From assembly GCA_050945315.1 (NCBI GenBank), contig JBMNSS010000002.1:1-61652 (forward strand): a DNA stretch of 61,652 nucleotides, in the 5' to 3' direction. The notes beneath the pieces are model-generated. The model ran no database searches and was not told the origin of the DNA. It saw only the letters and a list, made by a program, of their open reading frames with translations. Shown one piece after another: positions 8,182 through 61,311 of this stretch. Positions within the stretch are counted from its first letter, which is position 1. Every line of letters starts with the position of its first letter. Both the position numbers and the translations under genes were made by a program. The stretch comes from Limnochordia bacterium. GTDB lineage: Bacteria; Bacillota; Limnochordia; DTU080.

Positions 8182-9462
8182 CTACTGACTGAGCACGAGG
8201 TTGTACAGGCGTTCAGCTTCAGCCAATGCGGCGGCGATACCCTTGCGACCGGCGACCGCCTCTTCGACATGATCCTTCCATATCGGGGTGAGATCGGTGG
8301 ACCGCCGGAACGGATACACGCTACCGATATAGGCAATCTCGGGAATCATGCGCATCCACGCATGCTTCGTGTGACCGGTGCGCCACGCTGAAGACCGATA
8401 GAAATCCAGCCGCGGTGATCCGACATAGTCGAGGATCTTAAACTGCTCGATGTTGGCCTCCAGACCGCCCATCAACTTGATGTAATCCCAGGCCAAGGGA
8501 ACCTGCTTGCAGGACACGGGGATAGCGACCATGTTACCCCATACCGTGGATCCTCGCCCTTTACCCGAGGGACCCTGGGGGAAGCTGGTAGCCATGAATC
8601 GCATATCCGGTGCGCTTTGCAGGAAGACGCGCGGAGTGGCGTTGTTGTTGTAGCTCATAGATACCGTCTGACTGGCAAAGTTGCCGCCCGTTACTTCGTG
8701 TACGAGCAACAGGTCGCTCAGAAACTGTGCGGTTTGCCGTCCCGCCTCGGTGTTGAAACCGGCTACATTGAGATCGGGATCGGAGTAGAAGCTGCCACCG
8801 TTGGAGGCCAGCCAACTGTTAAACGACTCGATTTTGGCGTTATGGATGTAGCCGTAACGGCTTACCTGACCATCGGGTTCTTTACGCGTGAGTTTTTTCG
8901 CGGCCTGGGTGAAATCATCCCAGGTGGCAATGCCGTAGGGATCGGTGTTAAGACCGGCCTCTTCAAAGTGATCGAGATTGTAGTACAGCACGGCCGCGTC
9001 CATGCCGACGGTGACTCCGTAGATGTGTCCTCTGTATTGATTGTAAAGCTGAGTGACCGGAATGAACTTATCGGGCGTCAGTTCGGGCGTCTTCTTAACC
9101 AAGTCGGTCAAGTCCATAATGACTCCCTCTTCGAATAGATCGCGCGCCCAGAGCATTGACAGGTGTACGACATCGGGTGCTGTATCCGTGACAACCCCGG
9201 TCAGAAGCCTGTCCAGGAGATTGTTCATGGTCACCTGAATATATTCCACTTCCACATCCGGATTCTGACGCTCGTAGGTCTCCTTGAGCCAACCGTAGTA
9301 GGCCTGCATCGTCGTTGTCGAGTGAATACGCCAGTCCATGACTGTGATCGTTGATTTCGCACTTGTACTCAAAATCAAGCTTTGACTTAAGATAAGAAGC
9401 AGTGACAAGGACAGCAATAGCGACATGCGACGGACTGTTTTGGTAGATTGTCTGAACAACAT
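8182..9462 (-). CDS. ABC transporter extracellular solute-binding protein (family 1, sugar type), no adjacent permease or ATPase
   Basis: SBP_bac_1-like sequence (TITVMDW..YERQNPDVEVEY..APDVVH). The start is set at ATG 9462, 6 nt after GGAGG. The N-terminus is a hydrophobic anchor with no lipobox Cys. Confidence 0.8.
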   Translation of the reverse strand: MLFRQSTKTVRRMSLLLSLSLLLILSQSLILSTSAKSTITVMDWRIHSTTTMQAYYGWLKETYERQNPDVEVEYIQVTMNNLLDRLLTGVVTDTAPDVVHLSMLWARDLFEEGVIMDLTDLVKKTPELTPDKFIPVTQLYNQYRGHIYGVTVGMDAAVLYYNLDHFEEAGLNTDPYGIATWDDFTQAAKKLTRKEPDGQVSRYGYIHNAKIESFNSWLASNGGSFYSDPDLNVAGFNTEAGRQTAQFLSDLLLVHEVTGGNFASQTVSMSYNNNATPRVFLQSAPDMRFMATSFPQGPSGKGRGSTVWGNMVAIPVSCKQVPLAWDYIKLMGGLEANIEQFKILDYVGSPRLDFYRSSAWRTGHTKHAWMRMIPEIAYIGSVYPFRRSTDLTPIWKDHVEEAVAGRKGIAAALAEAERLYNLVLSQ

Positions 9463-38815: not shown

Positions 38816-40108
38816 ATGCTGACCGCAGTTTATCGGGCGTATCTTAGGAGAATCTCGGGTAGGCGGGCCAACGGGCAGCGTGGTGATTGGACCATCCGAA
38901 TACTCTTGATGATCATGCTTCCGCTGATGCTGTTCACGGTGATCAACCATCCGTGGTTCCAGCCTCTGTTGGGGCACATGGCGCGTGAGACCGCTCGTTT
39001 GACCCCGTCGGTAGGCGGGTGGCTGAGCATGGATGCAGTGCGGGGAAAGGCGATTCTGCAGGCCGCTTTGCCGACCGTGGCGGAGGTGGGGCGGGATCCG
39101 ATCCCCAATTTCGGTTGGCGGCACACGTTGCGCTCATGGTTGTATGTAGTCCTCGGTTACGATATGTCACAACCCCGGACGCTGTTTTTGGCGGCCGTGC
39201 CCGGTCTGCATCTGCCACCTCCGGAGGAGACGGTGGAGTTGGCAGTGGTTCAGCCCAAAACGGAACCGATCGCAGAACCGGAGCCGGCAGCACATGATGT
39301 GGCCGCCTCGCCTCGATCGCCAGGCCGGGATTGGGGCCGGGAACCTTTGGTATTGATCTTCCATACACATACTTCGGAGATGTATGCCACCGGGGACGAT
39401 GCGCCGAAGTCGCCTCAGCATTATCATATGTTCAATACGACCGATACGGGAATAGTACGGGTCGGTGAGGCTTTGGCTCGGACCTTGAGCGAACGTCACG
39501 GCATTCCTGTTCTTCACTCCAAGGCCATCCACGATTTTCCCAACTACGCGCAGTCGTATCAGCGATCCGCCACTACCGTGCAACGGATTCTGAGTAAGCA
39601 TCCTTCCATTCGTCTGGTGCTTGATGTGCATCGCGACGGTGCGCAAAACGTGTCGTTTGTACGGCAAGTGGGCTCTCAGAGCGTGGCTCAGGTCATGGTA
39701 GTCGTCACCAAACCCATTAGCTATTCCGAGGCATTGCATCCGCGCTGGGCGGAGAATGTGCAGGTCGCCAACCTCATGAAAAAGACCATGGAAGCGATGT
39801 ATCCCGGTTTGCTCAGGCCCTATGCTGTCGTGGGAAGGAACCGCTATAATCAGCATCTGCATCCACATATGCTGTTACTGGAGGTCGGCAATTACATAGA
39901 CGACGAGAAGTATGCCCTGCGCAGCGCGGTATTGATGGCCGATGTGGTGGCCCGAGTCCTCAGTGAACTGCCGGCTGTCTCATTGAGGCCGTCGACGAGC
40001 GCGAGTCAGGTCACCTCTTCCGCAGTATCAGGAACGACGCAGGAAGCGCGCAGCGGCGTACAACCGCCCTTGCCACAGACACCCGCGCCGACGGTGCTCA
40101 AACGCTGA
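38816..40108 (+). CDS. spoIIP: stage II sporulation protein P
   Basis: IFHTHTSEMY and LDVHRDG motifs, with an N-terminal TM helix. The start is set at ATG 38816. Confidence 0.8.
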   Translation: MLTAVYRAYLRRISGRRANGQRGDWTIRILLMIMLPLMLFTVINHPWFQPLLGHMARETARLTPSVGGWLSMDAVRGKAILQAALPTVAEVGRDPIPNFGWRHTLRSWLYVVLGYDMSQPRTLFLAAVPGLHLPPPEETVELAVVQPKTEPIAEPEPAAHDVAASPRSPGRDWGREPLVLIFHTHTSEMYATGDDAPKSPQHYHMFNTTDTGIVRVGEALARTLSERHGIPVLHSKAIHDFPNYAQSYQRSATTVQRILSKHPSIRLVLDVHRDGAQNVSFVRQVGSQSVAQVMVVVTKPISYSEALHPRWAENVQVANLMKKTMEAMYPGLLRPYAVVGRNRYNQHLHPHMLLLEVGNYIDDEKYALRSAVLMADVVARVLSELPAVSLRPSTSASQVTSSAVSGTTQEARSGVQPPLPQTPAPTVLKR

Positions 40109-41918: not shown

Positions 41919-43718
41919 TTGCAGAACCGCGTAAGGAACTTCTGTATTATTGCTCATATTGACCATGGAAAATCCACGTTGGCTGATCGGCTCCTGGAAC
42001 GCACTAACGCCGTATCTGAGCGCGAGATGACGGAACAAGTCCTTGATTCCATGGATATTGAGCGTGAGCGTGGCATCACTATCAAGTTGCGGGCAGTACG
42101 ACTGGAGTACCATGCTCGTGATGGTGAGATGTATACGCTGAATCTGATCGATACTCCCGGTCACGTCGATTTCTCCTATGAGGTGAGTCGGTCGTTGGCT
42201 GCCTGTGAAGGAGCGTTGCTCGTCATTGACGCCTCTCAGGGCATAGAAGCACAGACACTTGCCAATCTTTATCTTGCACTGGAACATGATTTGGAGATCA
42301 TTCCGGTGATTAACAAGATAGATCTTCCGGGTGCCGACCCTGAAGCCGTGTGCAAAGAACTGGAAGAGGGTATTGGCTTAGATGCATCTGATGCCCTGCT
42401 GATCAGCGCGAAGACAGGCGTCGGAATTGACGAGGTTCTCGAGGCCGTCGTAGAGCGTATTCCCCCGCCCGGGGGAGATGTCGACCGGCCTTTGCGAGCC
42501 CTGATTTTTGATTCGCATTTCGACCCCTATCGCGGAGCCATAGCCTATGTACGGGTCGTAGATGGCCAGGTGAGCGTAGGATCTCAGATTCGTATGATGT
42601 CGAGCGGTCGTACGTTTACCGTGACCGAACTGGGCGTTTTCAGGCCCCACATGATTCCCGTCGATGAACTCAGGACCGGTGAGGTGGGTTGTCTCATTGC
42701 TCAGATGAAGGATCTGAGCGACACCCGCGTGGGAGATACCATCACTGATGCCCAACGGCCGGCGACGGAGGCGCTTCCGGGCTATCGCAAGGCCGTACCT
42801 ATGGTGTTTTGTGGTCTGTATCCGGTGATCAACGAAGAGTACGGAGACTTGCGTGAAGCGTTAGAAAAGCTTCGCCTCAACGATGCGTCCTTGGTTTTTG
42901 AGCCGGAGACATCGATGGCCTTGGGATTCGGTTATCGCTGTGGCTTTTTGGGTCTGCTGCATATGGAGATCGTGCAGGAAAGATTGGAGCGCGAGTTCGA
43001 CCTTGATCTTATTGCTACGGCACCCAGCGTGGTGTACAAGATCTATCGCACTGACGGGCAGGTCATCAGTGTTGACAATCCCGCTTCATATCCCGACCCG
43101 GCCACGATTGAGAAGGTTGAGGAACCCTTCGTACGGGCGGCTATTGTGGTCCCGAAAGACTTTGTGGGTCCGATTATGGAGTTGTGTCAAAACCGGCGCG
43201 GGCAGTACGTAACCATGGGCTATATAAACCCGGAGAGGGTGCGCCTGGAATATGATCTTCCCCTGGCAGAGATCCTGATGGACTTCTATGACAAGCTGAA
43301 GTCTCGCTCCAAGGGGTATGCGTCCCTGGACTATGAACTGATCGGCTATCGGGAGAGCGATTTGGTGAGGCTGGACGTTTTGTTAAACGCCGAGCCGGTC
43401 GATGCGTTGTCATGCATTGTTCACCGCGACAAGGCCTATGAACGAGGTCGACAGCTGACGGAAAAGCTTAAGGAAGTCATCCCTCGTCAGATGTTTGAGG
43501 TCCCCATTCAAGCCAGTGTCGGAAACCGGGTGATCGCCCGGGAGACCGTGCGTGCCCTGCGCAAAGACGTGTTGGCCAAGTGTTACGGAGGCGATGTCAG
43601 TCGTAAGCGCAAGCTGTTGGAGAAGCAAAAAGAAGGCAAAAAGCGTATGAAGCAACTCGGAACCGTGGAGGTGCCGCAGGAGGCTTTTCTGGCTGTGTTG
43701 CGGATCGGAGATGCTTGA
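41919..43718 (+). CDS. lepA: translation elongation factor 4 (LepA)
   Basis: [30 protein letters not shown] and NKID G-motifs. The TTG start follows GAGAGGTGG. Confidence 0.95.
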
Positions 43719-44874
43719 GGAACCCACCTTTGAGTTCGGAAGCGCCGGTATTTATGTGCATGTCCCTTTCTGCCTGCGCAAGTGCCTTTATTGTGATTTC
43801 GTCTCCTATCCGGCTGTGCCGGATGAGATGAACGCCTATTTTAAGGCCCTCGTCCGTGAGATTCAGATTGTCGCCGACCAGCTGTCTCAAGTGTCGGTGA
43901 CGAGTGCTTATCTGGGCGGGGGCACCCCCTCTGCTTTGCCTACCGCCATGCTATGCGGCATTCTTTCTCATATCCGAGCTGCCTTCAACCTCGACTCGCA
44001 TGCGGAGATAAGTGCCGAGATCAACCCCGGGACCCTGGAAGCGGTCGATTTGGCGGCAGTCGCCGCCGCGGGAGTCAATCGCTTAAGCATCGGCGTGCAG
44101 AGCCTGGATGACGGCTTGTTGCAGCGCCTGGGGCGTGTACATACTGCCGGAGAGGCCGTGGACAGCATTCGAGCGGCCCGGGCAGCCGGTTTTCAGAATA
44201 TCAACATTGATCTCATGTTTGGTCTGCCGGGCCAGAGCTTGAGTGATCTCAGGCAGACCGTTGACCGAGTCATCGAGCTTGCTCCGGAGCACATCTCGTG
44301 TTACAGCCTCATCGTCGAGCCGACGACCCCATTGGCCAAGCAACTGGAGAAACGAGAGCTTGAGCTTCCCGATGAGGATCTGGAACTGGCCATGTACGAG
44401 TGGGTCATGGCCAGGCTGCACGCAGCGGGATATGAACACTATGAGATCTCCAGTTGGGCGCGGCCGGGATATCGAAGTCGACATAACGAGCTATACTGGC
44501 GTAACGAATGGTACCGAGGCTTGGGGCCGGCCGCTCATTCGCACTGGGATCGTCAACGTTGGGCCAATGCTCCTACCGTCAAAGCCTACAGTCAGGCGCT
44601 TGACCAAGGAGTGCTCCCCGTGGTGGAGCGATGTCAGCTCTCTGCGGACGATGAGATGGATGAGACAATGATCATGGGGTTGCGTTTGTTGGAGGGCGTG
44701 AGCGAAGAGAGGTTTCGGACTCGTTACGGACGAGGGCTTGAGGCGACGTATGGGCCGGAGATCGTGCGTTTGGTCCGGCTCGGTCTTGTCGAGTACGGTT
44801 CTTCTCTCAGGCTGACGCGTAAAGGGTTGCTCATAGCCAACCAGGTATTTGCCGCTTTCTTGCGTTCACCTTGA
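43711..44874 (+). CDS. hemW: radical SAM heme chaperone HemW (HemN-like)
   Basis: The CxxxCxxC motif is present as [10 protein letters not shown], and the position after lepA is conserved. Confidence 0.9.
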
Positions 44875-44900
44875 CAAAGCAGGGCAGCCGATGCTATGTT
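44871..44900 (+). promoter_or_regulatory. sigmaA-like promoter of the hrcA heat-shock operon
   Basis: TTGACA (44871-44876, overlapping the hemW stop), an 18-nt spacer, then TATGTT (44895-44900), directly upstream of CIRCE. Confidence 0.55.
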
Positions 44901-44911
44901 GGGATTGGTGA

Positions 44912-44938
44912 TTAGCACTCTTCTTGCTTGAGTGCTAA
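44912..44938 (+). promoter_or_regulatory. CIRCE operator (HrcA binding site)
   Basis: TTAGCACTC-ttcttgctt-GAGTGCTAA is a perfect match to the consensus TTAGCACTC-N9-GAGTGCTAA. Confidence 0.9.
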
Positions 44939-45280
44939 CGGACTGAAGGGTGAGCACTGGCCCTAACCCAAGCTTAATCAGTCTGAGGGCCTCCGGCACG
45001 TCGTTACGAGCGAATGACAGCGGCCCGCAGTGTCACCTGTGACAACCGCTCGATAGCGCCGGTGAGGAGAGCGTCACCACTGTCAGGTGTGTAGTATCAT
45101 AATCAGCTGCGCGAGGATGACCCGGGGTGTTTCAGCACACTTCCGTTATCCCGCCGACCAACGTCATGTGTTTGAAGGAAGATGTTGCCGCTGATTATCC
45201 GGTGCCGGAGCGCCGTGATGATCGCGAGAGCGATTCGGCAGGATCGCACCTTTCAGGGTCCTTCAGGGAGCACGACATAT
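44939..45280 (+). mobile_element. IscB-less derivative (copy A) of the iscB/omega-RNA element: omega-RNA-like scaffold plus decayed first iscB codons, inside the hrcA leader
   Basis: Collinear blocks shared with 61092-61406. These include CAGTGTCAC (45028-45036 = 61227-61235), GGGTGTTT at the iscB start context (45125-45132 vs 61310-61317), and LKEDVAADY vs LKKGKAAVY. The frame from GTG 45127 stops at 45282. Confidence 0.6.
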
Positions 45281-45300
45281 GATTCCGGTGGTGAAGCAGG

Positions 45301-46314
45301 GTGGATAGGAGGAAAGAGACTATCCTGCGGGCTATCACCGACGACTACATCGAAACGGCCGAACCGGTAGGATCGCGGACCATCGCCCGCAAGTATGGTC
45401 TGGGCTTAAGTCCCGCTACAATTCGCAATGAAATGGCTGATTTGGAGGAGTTGGGCTACCTGCACCAGCCGCACACTTCAGCCGGGCGCATCCCTTCTGA
45501 CAAAGGATACCGCTTCTATGTGGATGTGCTCATACCTGATCCCAAAATCTCTGAAGAAGAAGAACACTTTGTCCGAGAGAAAATGGTTGTCTCGCAGGTG
45601 GCCGCGGACGAGGTTGTTCGACGGGCCTTGCGCGTGTTGGGGCTCATGACGCACTATGCCGCGGTTGCCATTACGCCCAGTCTCATGGACAGTGTCGTAC
45701 GTGCGGTGCGCTTTGTGCCCATCGATGATCGTCACGTCTTGGTCGTCGTGGTCACGGATCCGGGACTTGTGCAAAACCGCATCGTGGAAGTAGATCGTGT
45801 GGCACCGGAGGTGTTGGCTGAAGCCGGTCAACGTATCAGTGCCAGGCTGATGGGCAGCGCTCTGCGTGATGTGACTGTCGACATCTGCAGAGAGCTCGCT
45901 GACGAGGTGCCCGACCCGAGTCTTTATCCGGTTCTGATGGAGATGCTGATGGAGGGACTTACCGACACCTCCGAAAAGGTGCTGGTCGACGGAAGCATCA
46001 ACCTCATGGATCATCCTGAATTCCGGCAGATCGCTCGCGCCAAGGCTTTGCTTGCGGCCTTGGAAGAACGGGAGCGTCTTCATGAGGTCGTCAGCATGAG
46101 TGTGGATACCGGTGTCGTTATAGGCGAGGAGAACGTCTACGAAGGGGTCCGGGATTGCAGCGTTGTAACTGCGACCTACGGCGGCGGAGGCCGGATCGTA
46201 GGGGCAGTGGGTGTGATCGGACCCACTCGCATGGAGTACGCCCGGGCGATTGCCGTGGTTCAGCTTGTGGCTGACATGCTTTCGGAAATGCTCAGGGGCA
46301 CCTTGTCGGCTTAG
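45301..46314 (+). CDS. hrcA: heat-inducible transcription repressor HrcA
   Basis: N-terminus ILRAITDDYIETAEPVGSRTIARKYGLGLSPATIRNEMADLEELGYL, located at the head of the dnaK operon. Confidence 0.9.
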   Translation: MDRRKETILRAITDDYIETAEPVGSRTIARKYGLGLSPATIRNEMADLEELGYLHQPHTSAGRIPSDKGYRFYVDVLIPDPKISEEEEHFVREKMVVSQVAADEVVRRALRVLGLMTHYAAVAITPSLMDSVVRAVRFVPIDDRHVLVVVVTDPGLVQNRIVEVDRVAPEVLAEAGQRISARLMGSALRDVTVDICRELADEVPDPSLYPVLMEMLMEGLTDTSEKVLVDGSINLMDHPEFRQIARAKALLAALEERERLHEVVSMSVDTGVVIGEENVYEGVRDCSVVTATYGGGGRIVGAVGVIGPTRMEYARAIAVVQLVADMLSEMLRGTLSA

Positions 46315-46358
46315 ACGTCATATTGGCTCAGTGGATTCCTCTAAGATGAAGAGCGTGA

Positions 46359-46388
46359 GAGCGTGCATGAGCATATTCATGCACGCTC
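46359..46388 (+). other. perfect 12-bp stem-loop in the hrcA-grpE spacer
   Basis: GAGCGTGCATGA (46359-46370), loop gcatat, then TCATGCACGCTC (46377-46388). No U-tract follows. Confidence 0.5.
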
Positions 46389-46432
46389 ATGGCAATGAAG
46401 ACTTGTGCGTTCGTTAGGGAGGTCGTTACGAC

Positions 46433-47098
46433 TTGGTGGGTTCAGACGTGCCCGAGCCGGAAGCGGGCAGGGAGGCGGTTTGTGACCAGGCTGAGGCTGT
46501 CGAACCAGTAGAGGCAGCTGAAGACAAGGCAATAGAAGAAGCCGCCGAAGACAAGACAGTCGAAGAAGAGGCTGCTGAAGACAAGACAGTCGAAGAAGAG
46601 GCCGCGGAAGCTGAGGAAACCGACAGTGACCGAGAGGCCGAACTGGCTGAGAAGCAGCGGCAGATAGAAGCCTTGGTCGTTCAGAACATGCGGTTGCGTG
46701 CGGATTTTGAGAACTTCCGCCGTCGTAATCAACAGAAGCTTGAGGAATACTCCCAAAGGGGAGCCGAGCGTCTGATCAATAAGCTGTTGCCTGTCTTGGA
46801 CGATTTTGACCGAGCTTTGGAGGCGTCCTCCGGTACCCGAGCGACGGAGGGTCTTGCCCAGGGTGTCAGCATGGTCAGACAGGCACTGTTGGACGCACTC
46901 TATTCCGAAGGACTGTCGCCGATAGAGAGTGTAGGCTTGGCCTTTGATCCCAACTACCACGAGGCGGTGGCGCTCGAGGAGTGTGCTGAGGGCAGACTAT
47001 ACGTCGTTGAAGAGTATCAAAAAGGCTACATTTTTGGTGGTCGCGTGCTGCGTCCCGCCAAGGTCAAGGTGGGACCTTCAGCTGAGCCCTTGGCTTGA
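46433..47098 (+). CDS. grpE: nucleotide exchange factor GrpE
   Basis: RLRADFENFRRR motif and a conserved C-terminal beta domain. The TTG start lies 10 nt after AGGGAGG. The acidic N-terminal region is repetitive. Confidence 0.9.
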   Translation: MVGSDVPEPEAGREAVCDQAEAVEPVEAAEDKAIEEAAEDKTVEEEAAEDKTVEEEAAEAEETDSDREAELAEKQRQIEALVVQNMRLRADFENFRRRNQQKLEEYSQRGAERLINKLLPVLDDFDRALEASSGTRATEGLAQGVSMVRQALLDALYSEGLSPIESVGLAFDPNYHEAVALEECAEGRLYVVEEYQKGYIFGGRVLRPAKVKVGPSAEPLA

Positions 47099-47135
47099 TC
47101 GACCTTCTCAGACTACGGTAGTCTTTGAAGGTCGA
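47099..47135 (+). terminator. two-tier hairpin immediately after the grpE stop (possible attenuator or partial terminator)
   Basis: TCGACCTTC (47099-47107) pairs with GAAGGTCGA (47127-47135), enclosing AGACT (47110-47114) paired with AGTCT (47120-47124). The U-tract is weak. Confidence 0.45.
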
Positions 47136-47169
47136 TCGTGCTCGGTGACGGCCGCACGTTCACTTGTTC

Positions 47170-47527
47170 TTGAGTGCTTCGAGCACCACGTTACGGGCGA
47201 GCGACATAGGCATTCCGGGGCACTTCGTCGGCTCCGGATCTTGCGGCGCCGGTTAGACTCGACCGATGGGGGCAACGGCAGCGTCACCTGCAGACCGCTC
47301 AGAAAAACCTGCGAGAAGACCGCTATCGCCGGAAGGCCCGTGGCGCCTTCACAGGCTAGCGGGCGTGGGTCCGTGGTGTTTCAGCGCGCCCTGTCATCCC
47401 GTCACGCAAGTCAAGCGTTGGAACGGAGAAGTTGCCGCCGATCATCGGGTGCCGGAACGTCGGCTTCACGCAGGCGCGATCTTTAGGGGGCGCACCATCC
47501 GTGGTGCTTCCCGGACAACCAGACAAA
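47170..47527 (+). mobile_element. second IscB-less derivative (copy B) of the iscB/omega-RNA element, in the grpE-dnaK spacer
   Basis: ACGTTACGGGCGAGCGACATAGGCA (47188-47212) matches 61134-61157. GGCAACGG..CAGCGTCAC (47271-47287) matches 61218-61235. It is alignable to copy A over about 330 nt (GGTGTTTCAGC, GTTGCCGC and GGTGCCGGA are identical). Confidence 0.6.
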
Positions 47528-47598
47528 CTAGCAGTCATGCATGGTGTCGGTTGACGATCTTGATGTCGACGGATACCACGAGAGTGGAGGAAGGATAT

Positions 47599-49458
47599 AT
47601 GAGCAAGGTGGTCGGTATTGATTTAGGCACCACCAATTCGGTTATCGCGGTCATGGAAGGCGGGGAACCGACGGTTATCCCCAACGCTGAGGGTAGCCGG
47701 ACGACACCGTCGGTGGTAGCCTTCAGTCAAAAAGACGGCGGTCAACCGGCGGAACGCCTTGTTGGTGCGGTGGCCAAGCGACAGGCGGTCAGCAACCCTG
47801 ATCGCACGATTCTGTCGATCAAAAGGCAAATGGGTACCGAGTACAAGGTTCGCATAGACGGTCGCAATTATACTCCGCCGGAAATCGCGGCCATGATCCT
47901 GCAGAAGCTTCGGGCGGATGCGGAAGAGTACTTGGGAGAAAAGATCACGAAAGCCGTGATCACAGTTCCCGCCTACTTCACGGATGCTCAACGGCAGGCC
48001 ACCAAGGATGCGGGCACCATTGCCGGTCTTGAGGTCTTGCGTATTATCAACGAGCCTACCGCTGCGGCTCTCGCCTACGGTGCAGAGCGGGACGAAGATC
48101 ATACCGTCTTGGTATTTGACCTTGGCGGGGGAACGTTTGACGTTTCCATTCTGGAACTCGGCGACGGAGTTTACGAAGTCAAGGCGACCAGCGGGAACAA
48201 CCGCTTGGGCGGCGATGACTTCGATCAGCGAATCATAGACTATCTGGTTAGCGAGTTCGAGAAGACCACCGGTGTTGATCTTAGAAAAGATCGTATGGCT
48301 ATGCAGCGGGTGAAGGAAGCAGCTGAGAAGGCCAAGATAGAGTTGTCCGGAATCACACAGACCACGATCAACCTGCCTTTCATCGCCATGAAACCGGATG
48401 GTCCGCTGAATATGGATATCACTTTGACGCGGGCCAAGTTCGAGGCCTTGACGAAAGACTTGGTTGAGGCCACCATGGGACCAACCAAGCGGGCCTTGGC
48501 TGACGCGGGGCTGAAACCCCATGACATTGACCGTGTGATTCTGGTCGGCGGCTCTACTCGTATTCCGGCCGTTCAAGAAGCCATTCGTCAGCTCATAGGC
48601 AAGGACCCTCACAAGGGTGTGAATCCTGACGAAGTGGTGGCTGTGGGAGCGGCCATTCAGGCAGGAATACTGGCCGGTGAAGTCAAAGACATCGTACTTC
48701 TGGATGTCACTCCGTTGTCGTTGGGTATCGAGACGTTGGGCGGAGTCTTCACGAAATTGATTGAGCGCAACACGACGATACCGACCCAGACCACAGAAAT
48801 CTTTTCCACGGCCGCAGACAACCAGACCGCAGTCGATATTCACGTGCTGCAAGGCGAGCGGTCGATGGCTGCGGATAACGTCACCTTGGGACGTTTCCAG
48901 CTGAGCGGTATCTTACCCGCTCCCAGGGGAGTGCCGAAAATAGAGGTTTCTTTTGATATAGACGTCAATGGTATCGTTAAGGTCTCCGCCAAGGATCTCG
49001 GTACGGGAAAGGCGCAGGAGATCACGCTTACCGCACGCACAGGCCTCAGCGAACAGGACATTGACCGCCTGGTTAAAGAGGCGGAGGCTCACGCCGAAGA
49101 TGACCAACGGCGCAAGGAGCTGATTGAGGCCCGTAACGAGGCAGATGCGCTCATCTACTCCGCGGATCGTACTCTCAATGAAATGGGAGACAAGGTGACT
49201 GATCAAGAACGCGAAGAGATAACCGAGGCACAAGAGGCTCTGAAGGCGGTCATGGGTGGCGAAGACATTCAGGCCATTAAAGACAAACAAGGTGACTTGA
49301 GTTCAGCGCTGTATAAGGTTACTTCTCGCGCCTATGAAGCGGGGCATGCATCTGAGTCGAGCGACGGCGACGATGATCGAGCCAGTGAGCCGACCGTGGA
49401 TGCCGATTTCACGGTGGATGACGATTTTACGGTAGATGACGACAAAAGCTGGTCGTAA
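47599..49458 (+). CDS. dnaK: molecular chaperone DnaK (Hsp70)
   Basis: [14 protein letters not shown] after GGAGGAAGG, followed by full Hsp70 motifs. The track ORF start at 47266 is an in-frame artefact running through the spacer. Confidence 0.95.
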
Positions 49459-49478: not shown

Positions 49479-49509
49479 GCGACACATGGGCGCCGCGCCC
49501 ATGTGTCGC
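49479..49509 (+). other. perfect 14-bp stem-loop in the dnaK-dnaJ spacer
   Basis: GCGACACATGGGCG (49479-49492), loop ccg, then CGCCCATGTGTCGC (49496-49509). No U-tract follows. Confidence 0.5.
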
Positions 49510-49550
49510 CGCGTACTGTGTGGAATAGCTGCCGGGGGGCGAAAAAAGGC

Positions 49551-50708
49551 GTGGCAAAAAGGGACTATTATGAGGTCTTGGGGGTTGGTAGAGACGCCTC
49601 AGAGGCTGACATAAAAAAAGCATACCGCCAGTTGGCTCGCAAATACCATCCCGACGTGGCCAAAGATGATCCACAAGCCGAAGAGAAGTTCAAAGAAGCC
49701 ACGGAGGCTTACAAGGTCTTGTCTAATCCGGAGGCGCGGGCGAAATACGACCAATTCGGTCATGCCGCCTTTGATCAGCAGGGCGCGGGATCCGGCGGCT
49801 TTGACCCCTTTGGAGGCTTCGGTTTCGATGATCTCGGCGATATCTTCGATGCGCTTTTCGGTGGGGCGACCAGGGGTGAAAGACGTCGCGGCCCGCAAAA
49901 AGGCGCTGACTTGCGCTATGATGTGACCTTGGAGTTCAAGGAAGCCGCTTTCGGAACGAACGTGGAAATCACCGTGCCTCGCAATGAAACATGCCCGCAC
50001 TGCCACGGCAACAAGGCCGAACCGGGCACGCCCATCGTTACTTGTGAGGTCTGTGGAGGCAGTGGAACGGTGCGTCAAGAACGGCATACGCCTCTTGGTC
50101 GCATGATGAACGTAATCACGTGTGGCAGATGTCAGGGAGAAGGCAAGACTGCCAAGCAGGCGTGTTCCGAATGCCAAGGGCGCGGGGTCGTCCATCGTCG
50201 GCGTCAGATAAGGGTCGATATTCCGGCCGGCGTCGACAATGACACGGTAGTGCCCGTTCCCGGTGAAGGTGAGGCGGGAACCAGAGGCGGTCCGCCGGGA
50301 GATCTGTATGTGTTTGTCAGGGTCAAGCCGCATAGATTCTTCCGCCGGGAAGGCAACGATGTCGTGTGTGAGATCCCGATCAGCTTTGCTCAGGCGGCGC
50401 TCGGGGATGAGATTGACGTTCCCACCTTGGACGGAAAGGCGAAGCTAAAGATTCCCGAGGGCACGCAGACGGGCACGGTCCTTCGCCTGCGGGGATTGGG
50501 GATCCCGGGGATCCGCGGGCATGGGCGCGGTGATCAACGGGTGGTCGTCAAGGTGGTGACTCCCACGCGTTTGACTCCTCGTCAGCGTGAATTGCTTCGG
50601 GAGTTCGCCGGTCTTTCGGGAGACGATAGCGGTATGAACGAGCAGCAAGACAAGAACCTGTTTCGCCGGATGCGTGAAGCCTTTGGCAGTCAAGGGCGCT
50701 CCGAATAG
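49551..50708 (+). CDS. dnaJ: co-chaperone DnaJ (Hsp40)
   Basis: J domain ([10 protein letters not shown]...YHPD), a G/F region and four CxxCxGxG zinc motifs. The start is set at GTG 49551. Confidence 0.9.
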
Positions 50709-60969: not shown

Positions 60970-61005
60970 AGGCCACCCTTTTTCTGTACGGGTGGCCTTT
61001 CTGTC
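60970..61005 (+). terminator. intrinsic terminator after rpsU
   Basis: AGGCCACCC (60970-60978) pairs with GGGTGGCCT (60990-60998), followed by TTCTGTCT. Confidence 0.7.
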
Positions 61006-61018
61006 TAGGGACGGACAG

Positions 61019-61311
61019 TTGAGCGCTTGACTTGATCAATGTTTTCGACCATCCGTGGTCTGCGAGCATTGATCATGTACGACGACAGTCGTAAGCTCAA
61101 CCAGCCTCAGCCAGGACCTTACGTCATCGGGCTACGTTACGGACGAATGTATAGGCACTTCGGGATGCTTCCCCCAGTTCCGAACTCTGTGGTGAGTGAT
61201 CAAACAGCACGGATCAAGGCAACGGGCAGTGTCACTCACATTTGAAACCGTCCGATAACATTGGCGAGGGGACCCATTACCGCCCACATAGGTGAGTACG
61301 CCTTGAGTAGG
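61019..61311 (+). ncRNA. candidate IscB omega-RNA (HEARO-type) scaffold; boundaries approximate
   Basis: The region lies directly upstream of the iscB-type ORF and has no credible ORF. Nested helices: 61033-61041/61067-61075, 61047-61051/61056-61060, 61078-61083/61088-61093 and 61192-61199/61232-61239, with an alternative 61234-61239/61292-61297 pairing. The sequence is repeated elsewhere in the window. Confidence 0.5.

Follow-up and report, generated by a model that had tools for sequence, protein, structure and literature searches.

A probable nuclease-less IscB-family element with a retained omega-RNA gene is inserted in the 3' end of grpE in a Limnochordia heat-shock operon

In IscB elements the guide at the 5' side of the omega RNA is the DNA lying just outside the transposon end, the elements are preferentially oriented in the same direction as the gene upstream of them, omega RNA biogenesis needs transcription from outside, and protein-less elements called PATEs exist as well (Meers et al., bioRxiv 10.1101/2023.03.14.532601). 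ISC elements have further been described as non-autonomous, with subterminal hairpins and no target-site duplication (Kapitonov et al. 2016, PMC4810608). Here we analyse a 61,652-nt stretch of DNA from a Limnochordia bacterium (GenBank assembly GCA_050945315.1, contig JBMNSS010000002.1, positions 1 to 61,652 of the forward strand; the whole stretch is referred to as the window), in which three related sequences occur: copy A in the hrcA leader, copy B between grpE and dnaK, and copy C, a HEARO (Rfam RF02033) located 5' of iscB. The ortholog of copy A in the hrcA leader of relatives (L004, L171) is called A4. Our subject is copy B, which we hold with considerable confidence to be a non-autonomous, PATE-like derivative of an IscB/IS200-IS605 element that has kept its omega-RNA gene, lacks iscB, and sits in grpE as a likely passenger or relic. 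The organism has no close cultured relative, its best matches in GTDB (including a Limnochordia metagenome-assembled genome) reaching 50% HrcA identity, and the contigs of nearer relatives used below were gathered via GrpE and HrcA homologues.

Copy B is a discrete insertion into the 3' end of grpE that rewrote the C-terminus of GrpE. A MAFFT alignment of the window with three of the relatives (L004, L169, L008) contains one gap, corresponding to window positions 47081-47510, and the similarity of B to A, A4 and C begins at TGAGC (47083) and stops after the distal hairpin. The first-pass annotation had treated the 500 nt between the grpE stop (47098) and the dnaK start (ATG 47599) as a spacer within the operon; the length of the gap and both of its ends were right, but it is not one spacer. 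It consists of ~430 nt of element (47081/47083-47510), 21 nt that are the old grpE end and stop, and a 67-nt native spacer. The flanks, …GGGACCTTCAGC on the left and CCGGACAAC… on the right, rejoin to the empty-site sequence, with boundaries uncertain by ~5 nt. The ancestral GrpE tail …GPAPENPTN has become …GPSAEPLA, followed by the new stop TGA at 47096-47098. No direct repeat flanks B, and hence there is no target-site duplication, within the same tolerance of about 5 nt at either boundary.

The site occupied by B is empty in the three nearest lineages (HrcA identity 80-91%), where the grpE-dnaK spacers measure 49-69 nt. In the window species (the window and contigs L001-L003, HrcA 100%) the hemW-hrcA interval is 426 nt, containing copy A, and the grpE-dnaK interval 500 nt, containing copy B. 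Contigs with 91% HrcA identity (L004-L006 and L171) have 503 nt, containing A4, and 67 nt at the respective positions; contigs with 80-81% identity (L169, L170, L007, L008) have 114 nt (L169) and 49-69 nt. Two more distant contigs have 258 and 12 nt (L172, HrcA 59%), and a hemW-hrcA interval of 153 nt on a contig that does not reach dnaK (L174, HrcA 61%). HrcA scans of genomes and metagenomes yielded distant relatives only (<=50% identity), which served as a negative control set; most of ~160 other Bacillota hrcA operons have grpE and dnaK 0-260 nt apart, and the ~500 nt of the window is the largest such distance. We would accordingly place the insertion of B after the window lineage split from its nearest sampled relatives.

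Copy B, copy A and the omega RNA/HEARO that precedes iscB are homologues, a relationship that the first-pass annotation had proposed from short shared motifs. By blastn, A and B share 245 nt at 64% identity (E=7e-20) and a second segment of 41 nt (E=2e-4), B and C share 103 nt at 65% identity (E=7e-6), and A4 matches C at E=7e-18 and B at E=2e-9. All of the motifs and coordinates on which the proposal had been built are borne out by a position check: 47188-47212 in B matches 61134-61157 in C, 47271-47287 matches 61218-61235, GGTGTTTCAGC is present at 45126 and 47375 only, and GGTGCCGGA at 45201 and 47448 only, while GTTGCCGC is found five times in the window and is therefore weak evidence by itself. 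As an independent homology test we used a covariance model built from C alone on its Rfam-assigned structure, which matches B at 47118-47327 (30.7 bits, E=1.3e-8), A4 (49.8 bits, E=8e-15) and A (14.3 bits, E=3e-3). Optimised global alignments give similar identities for all pairs among A, A4, B and C (69-76%), with B as distant from A as from A4 or C. It would be scarcely credible for the omega RNA resemblance to be an effect of chance or composition: the silence of Rfam HEARO on B and the recurrence of short motifs such as GTTGCCGC would favour such an effect, whereas the E values of 1e-8 to 1e-20 obtained by two methods, the compensatory pair changes described below and the collinear architecture of four copies speak against it.

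The covariance model and a DNA profile built on all four copies found no further match elsewhere in the window, and none in ~1.1 Mb comprising the ~160 other Bacillota hrcA operons, so that the association with the heat-shock operon is limited to a small clade. The copies seen are thus A, B and C within the 61-kb window, the far end of C lying beyond it, and A4 in relatives. Two sets of candidate matches were rejected. A 27-nt segment at 38931-38957, 78% identical to the proximal end of C and containing an exact ACCATCCGTGGT at 38946, is judged to be chance because it lies inside a gene that is probably SpoIIP (by synteny with L004 and L169) and has no further similarity around it. The pattern GGCAACGG(N)CAGYGTCAC gave 120+ matches in viral contigs that are likewise judged to be chance (0 of 80 retrieved loci pass the model), and a pattern for the distal hairpin had no match in the viral-contig scans.

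All four copies start with TGAGCNCNTGRCNTGAYC, and the sequences 5' of it are unrelated. When C and A4 are folded for minimum free energy, this start pairs with a strand ~75 nt downstream (UUGAGC/GCUCAA in C, UUGAGC/GCUCGA in A4) to give the first helix, P1, inside which lie hairpin 1, which is long, and hairpin 2, which is short; B and A can form this helix as well, with G.U in place of G-C where they differ from C. The two-tier hairpin that had been pointed out after the grpE stop is hairpin 1 of this scheme, and at its position C and A4 have a stem of different sequence. Hairpin 1 of A4, at 13 bp or more, is the strongest in the family. The distal hairpin of B has an almost identical counterpart at the corresponding position of A4 (GCACCATCTGTGGTGC), and the 12-nt core ACCATCCGTGGT recurs in the proximal inner hairpin of C (61048-61059). 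Since the omega RNA scaffold starts exactly at the insertion boundary, B fits the rule that the guide lies just outside the transposon end. In an alignment of the four copies, which was fitted to the model and so favours structure, 76% of cells hold standard pairs, compared with 32-39% after the partners have been shifted by 1-3 columns; on the same alignment 14 pairs are changed on both sides, compared with 1-4 in the shifted controls. Canonical pairs number 52 of 62 in C, 38 of 54 in A4, 43 of 60 in B and 21 of 24 in A, from which 38 pairs are deleted. B retains the 8-bp hairpin, hairpin 2 and the long-range helix in full.

The assignment of B to the IscB family must be tempered by a number of observations that weigh against it. 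Rfam HEARO gave no match at E<=10 on 44700-47800 (A and B together), none on B alone (47060-47380, 321 nt) and none at E<=10 on A4; at this threshold Rfam returned only noise on A, B and A4 (miRNA, snoRNA and COG3943 models, 11-16 bits). As the Rfam model scores none of these three copies, the family link runs over copy C as a bridge. Within B, the long distal stem is eroded (9 of 16 pairs), ~28% of helix positions are mispaired, and the fold energy of the whole element is unexceptional (z=-1.3). Only three copies are visible within the window, no common target motif or transposon-adjacent motif (TAM) can be read from the two empty sites, and a search of the window with a TnpA query sequence found none. 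Finally, the 3' module has been traced neither to iscB nor to the far end of an IscB element, and 'internal-deletion derivative' is therefore a reading of the architecture of B only; a DNA profile of this module had no match to the coding start of C or to two other IscB loci. The TnpA search did return a lone match (E=0.05), which is spurious, being inside an open reading frame (ORF) that by synteny is a sensor kinase gene.

The first-pass annotation had offered two accounts of why a pair of copies should sit in one operon, a segmental duplication of the hrcA leader or a functional requirement, and neither holds up well. According to the first, B would be a non-transpositional duplicate of the leader, i.e. 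of copy A, placed in front of dnaK. The two copies do share ~245 nt including the 3' module, in one operon and in the same orientation (the sense orientation of both was correctly noted at the outset), and their identity, similar to that of the other pairs, is compatible with descent of B from an earlier intact A. Against this, nothing outside the element was copied: B contains neither a promoter nor CIRCE, the only match to the operator in the window at <=3 mismatches being 44912-44938. B also has P1, and it has hairpins 1-2 and the 80-nt middle segment, which copy A has lost (that A lacks ~80 nt which B and C retain had been seen correctly); its similarity to the other copies stops exactly at termini common to A4 and C, and it resembles A no more closely than it does these two. 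We regard a leader duplication as quite improbable. Because the ends of B are the termini of the family, because B has parts that A lacks, and because the pairwise identities are similar, B more plausibly arose by transposition, either from a diverged member of the family or from A long ago.

According to the second account, A and B would be exapted structured RNAs needed by the heat-shock operon, whether for cis-regulation, processing, thermosensing or as a stress-induced source of guides. Two sense-oriented copies in one highly expressed operon under HrcA/CIRCE control would suit such a role, as would the partly kept omega RNA fold of B and the strong hairpin at the grpE stop. The distribution of the copies does not: none of the three nearest lineages has B, the 81% clade has no A, there is no match in ~1.1 Mb of other Bacillota hrcA operons (~160 of them), and no Rfam family matches. 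Copy A, moreover, has suffered two deletions and has diverged like synonymous sites, while the promoter, CIRCE and ribosome-binding site adjoining it are strongly conserved. A and A4 are ~62% identical with 16% gaps, and four-fold degenerate sites compared between the window and the L004 lineage are 65.5% identical (1063 sites), whereas the promoter and CIRCE are 82% identical and the ribosome-binding-site stretch is identical between the same lineages. Copy A is thus drifting at about the neutral, synonymous-site rate with no sign of constraint, and we consider exaptation improbable. For B itself, the four contigs of the window species have identical scores with the element profile and the covariance model, and so provide no variation for gauging constraint.

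The history of copy A is readable in the same relatives. A4, omega-RNA-like and of nearly full length, is fuller than A; on L004 it occupies 8431-8835, between CIRCE and the hrcA start codon, and it is carried by L004, L005, L006 and L171 (GCA_001513395.1 LFTP01000324.1). The hrcA leader of L169 is empty: CIRCE is followed by 44 nt and then by the conserved ribosome-binding-site region. The 91% clade has A and the 81% clade lacks it, which places its acquisition in the common ancestor of the window lineage and that of L004; it would represent an older insertion of the same family, now decaying at a near-neutral rate. A 51-aa ORF within copy A (45127-45282; L003 210-365) is annotated as a gene in a public contig from the window species; with no Pfam match and a frame that is kept in neither B nor A4, it is probably an annotation artefact.

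This gene call is also among the evidence that could be cited for a protein-coding role of the region, either as a DnaK with an N-terminal extension (730 aa, starting at 47266) or as a small ORF common to A and B. Open frames are indeed found in B (47266-49458 and 46944-47486) as well as in A. However, the ORFs of B contain no Pfam domain, with no RRXRR, RuvC or HNH among them, and the A/B similarity crosses frames, so that reading frames are not conserved between the copies. Relatives without B conserve the dnaK ATG and its ribosome-binding site (47586-47601), and in them the sequence that would encode the extension does not exist. A coding role has only the faintest likelihood in our estimation, and the N-terminal extension of dnaK (ORF 47266-49458) is an artefact, as the first-pass annotation had already recognised. 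Its companion claim, that part of B is frame-shifted iscB, finds no significant protein or DNA similarity: an IscB N-terminal profile (120 sequences) searched in every frame of A, B and A4 gave nothing significant (best E=0.03, in the wrong region), and the one hint is positional: B and C each have GTGTTT 291-292 nt into the element, and in C it is the likely start codon of iscB.

Copy C, a bona fide omega RNA, is the only copy that passes the Rfam HEARO gathering threshold. It precedes a partial iscB, the ORF of which begins at 61303/61312 and runs off the end of the window (RRXRR domain, Pfam E=2e-42). P1 of C starts 36 nt upstream of the Rfam match, with UUGAGC at 61019-61024 pairing with GCUCAA at 61095-61100; since this true first helix encloses an enlarged hairpin, the 5' pairs assigned by Rfam are non-canonical and the score is barely above the cut-off. 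The gene before copy C is, by sequence, that of ribosomal protein S21 (rpsU, GTG 60744 to TGA 60938), and it is followed at ~60970-61005 by a terminator-like hairpin, AGGCCACCC…GGGTGGCCT with TTTCTGT, so that read-through into the omega RNA of C would need to get past this apparent terminator. The closest IscB to that of copy C in the protein collection is 68-70% identical, with none closer, and the IscB loci of P0124 and P0127 have only the omega RNA core in common with C. Another example of the orientation rule is an unrelated IscB locus (L296 2796-4239; IscB N-terminus 68% identical to that of copy C), which is broken into an RRXRR ORF and a following HNH ORF and stands directly behind a gene for an AsnC/MarR-type regulator, in the same orientation as that gene.

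The sense orientation of B can be understood from the same rule, because an omega RNA that takes its guide from flanking DNA depends on read-through from a host gene 5' of it. The rule is followed by A, B and C alike (C lying behind rpsU), so that it is no surprise to see a strongly transcribed operon with two insertions. A scan of 44800-47700 found a single sigma-70-like promoter (TTGACA-18-TATGTT, 44871-44900), directly 5' of a perfect CIRCE operator (44912-44938; inverted repeat TTAGCACTC-N9-GAGTGCTAA), and no promoter-like or terminator-like site in B. Lacking both, B would be transcribed as part of the hrcA-grpE-dnaK mRNA.

Taken together, these results suggest the following course of events. 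A ~430-nt ISC-type element, mobilised perhaps by a Y1 TnpA supplied in trans, inserted into the last 6-7 codons of grpE with no target-site duplication. It thereby gave GrpE a new tail of 5-6 residues and a new stop, and stranded the old end, the old stop and the 67-nt spacer downstream, while dnaK kept its original ribosome-binding site (GGAGGAAGG at 47586-47594) and ATG 47599. B is most likely a passenger or relic, and probably decaying. It is unlikely still to serve the copy C IscB as a guide RNA. We give little credence to a stronger version, in which A and B are both kept as stress-induced guide RNAs used in trans by that IscB, or the RNA of B tunes the grpE:dnaK ratio; were the former true, the guides would come from the CIRCE-proximal leader and from the grpE 3' end, and their role would be homing or retention of the mini-elements. 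The positions of all parts are listed in Table 1.

Table 1. Parts of copy B, its relatives in the window and the genes of the host operon
Feature	Position	Strand	Basis or remark
Copy B, whole inserted element (IscB-less, omega-RNA-bearing, probably PATE-like)	47083..47510	+	~430 nt; boundaries good to ~5 nt
Left flank, grpE codons	47066..47082	+	would-be guide if the omega RNA is still used; after the rule of Meers et al.
New grpE C-terminus, …A-E-P-L-A-stop	47081..47098	+	element-encoded; sequence compared with L004, L169
P1 helix, 5' strand TGAGC	47083..47087	+	pairs with GTTCA 47158-47162; read from sequence
Hairpin 1, omega-proximal subterminal palindrome	47097..47137	+	two-tier, 11+6 bp (RNAfold); overlaps grpE stop codon
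Hairpin 2, CGGU-GACG-GCCG core	47138..47157	+	4/4 pairs kept in B, one compensatory vs C
Omega RNA/HEARO-like core	47118..47327	+	C-derived covariance model
3' module	47328..47491	+	~165-180 nt; common to A, partly A4 (blastn)
Distal subterminal hairpin GCACCATCCGTGGTGC + TTC	47492..47510	+	RNAfold; stem 47492-47507
Stranded old grpE 3' end CCGGACAACCAGACAAAC	47511..47531	+	old stop TAG 47529-47531; aligns to CCGGAGAATCCGACAAACTAG (grpE end, L004, L169)
Native grpE-dnaK spacer	47532..47598	+	includes GGAGGAAGG; collinear with 67-69-nt spacers of L004, L169
Copy A, hrcA leader	44951..45264	+	older, doubly deleted; downstream of promoter 44871-44900 and CIRCE 44912-44938
Copy C, omega RNA upstream of iscB	61019..61280	+	Rfam HEARO 61055-61280, 84.8 bits vs cut-off 83
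lepA	41919-43718		Pfam-confirmed
hemW	43711-44874		Pfam-confirmed
hrcA	45301-46314		Pfam-confirmed
grpE	46433-47098		Pfam-confirmed; stop TGA 47096-47098
dnaK	47599-49458		Pfam-confirmed; ATG 47599
dnaJ	49503-50708		Pfam-confirmed

Two features outside the element were recorded in passing. In its N-terminal region grpE has three imperfect tandem repeats of 27-30 nt (46507-46604, 76-83% identical) that encode an acidic, E/A/K-rich stretch; GrpE length varies among the relatives (200-221 aa), and this repeat stretch is one candidate source of the variation. A tRNA gene at 2003-2075 (Rfam, 67 bits) is unrelated to copy B.

Copy B is mobile-element debris of an ordinary kind and not a conserved heat-shock regulator. 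It nevertheless explains the anomalous 500-nt gap in a core chaperone operon, its recognition removes from the annotation a false 111-residue N-terminal extension of DnaK together with several spurious ORFs, and the C-terminus of GrpE is seen to have been rewritten by a transposon. With filled and empty sites both available, the locus is also a clean natural case of an IscB-family element without a nuclease in which the guide-RNA gene has been kept. Degraded or divergent stand-alone copies of this sort escape Rfam HEARO, and omega RNA surveys that use that model will consequently undercount them. If the embedded omega RNAs should still be processed, this would be a handy locus for asking whether IscB takes guides in trans.

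Compared with known systems, B is nearest to HEARO RNAs and to PATEs. It is collinear with copy C, itself a HEARO above the Rfam cut-off, and shares with it P1, two nested hairpins, the long-range helix and two large stem-loops; it is sense-oriented directly behind a transcribed host gene (grpE), with a would-be guide in its left flank. It differs from a HEARO in having no adjacent iscB (dnaK follows instead), in failing the Rfam model, in its broken pairs (~28%) and in its extra 3' module. Like PATEs and other non-autonomous IS200/IS605 elements, B is short and non-coding, has imperfect subterminal hairpins at both ends (47097-47137, 47492-47507), lacks a target-site duplication, is matched by empty sites in relatives, and may have ends in common with a protein-coding relative, C; its size of ~430 nt exceeds that of a minimal PATE because a whole guide-RNA gene has been retained. 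Stand-alone omega RNA loci are reportedly usable in trans by IscB, and B resembles them in that no nuclease gene neighbours it while the genome also encodes an IscB. The host operon, for its part, has the textbook promoter, the perfect CIRCE and the gene order lepA-hemW-hrcA-grpE-dnaK-dnaJ of the CIRCE/HrcA operons of Bacillota, from which it differs in the two apparent transposon relics carried in its transcript and in the rewritten 3' end of grpE.

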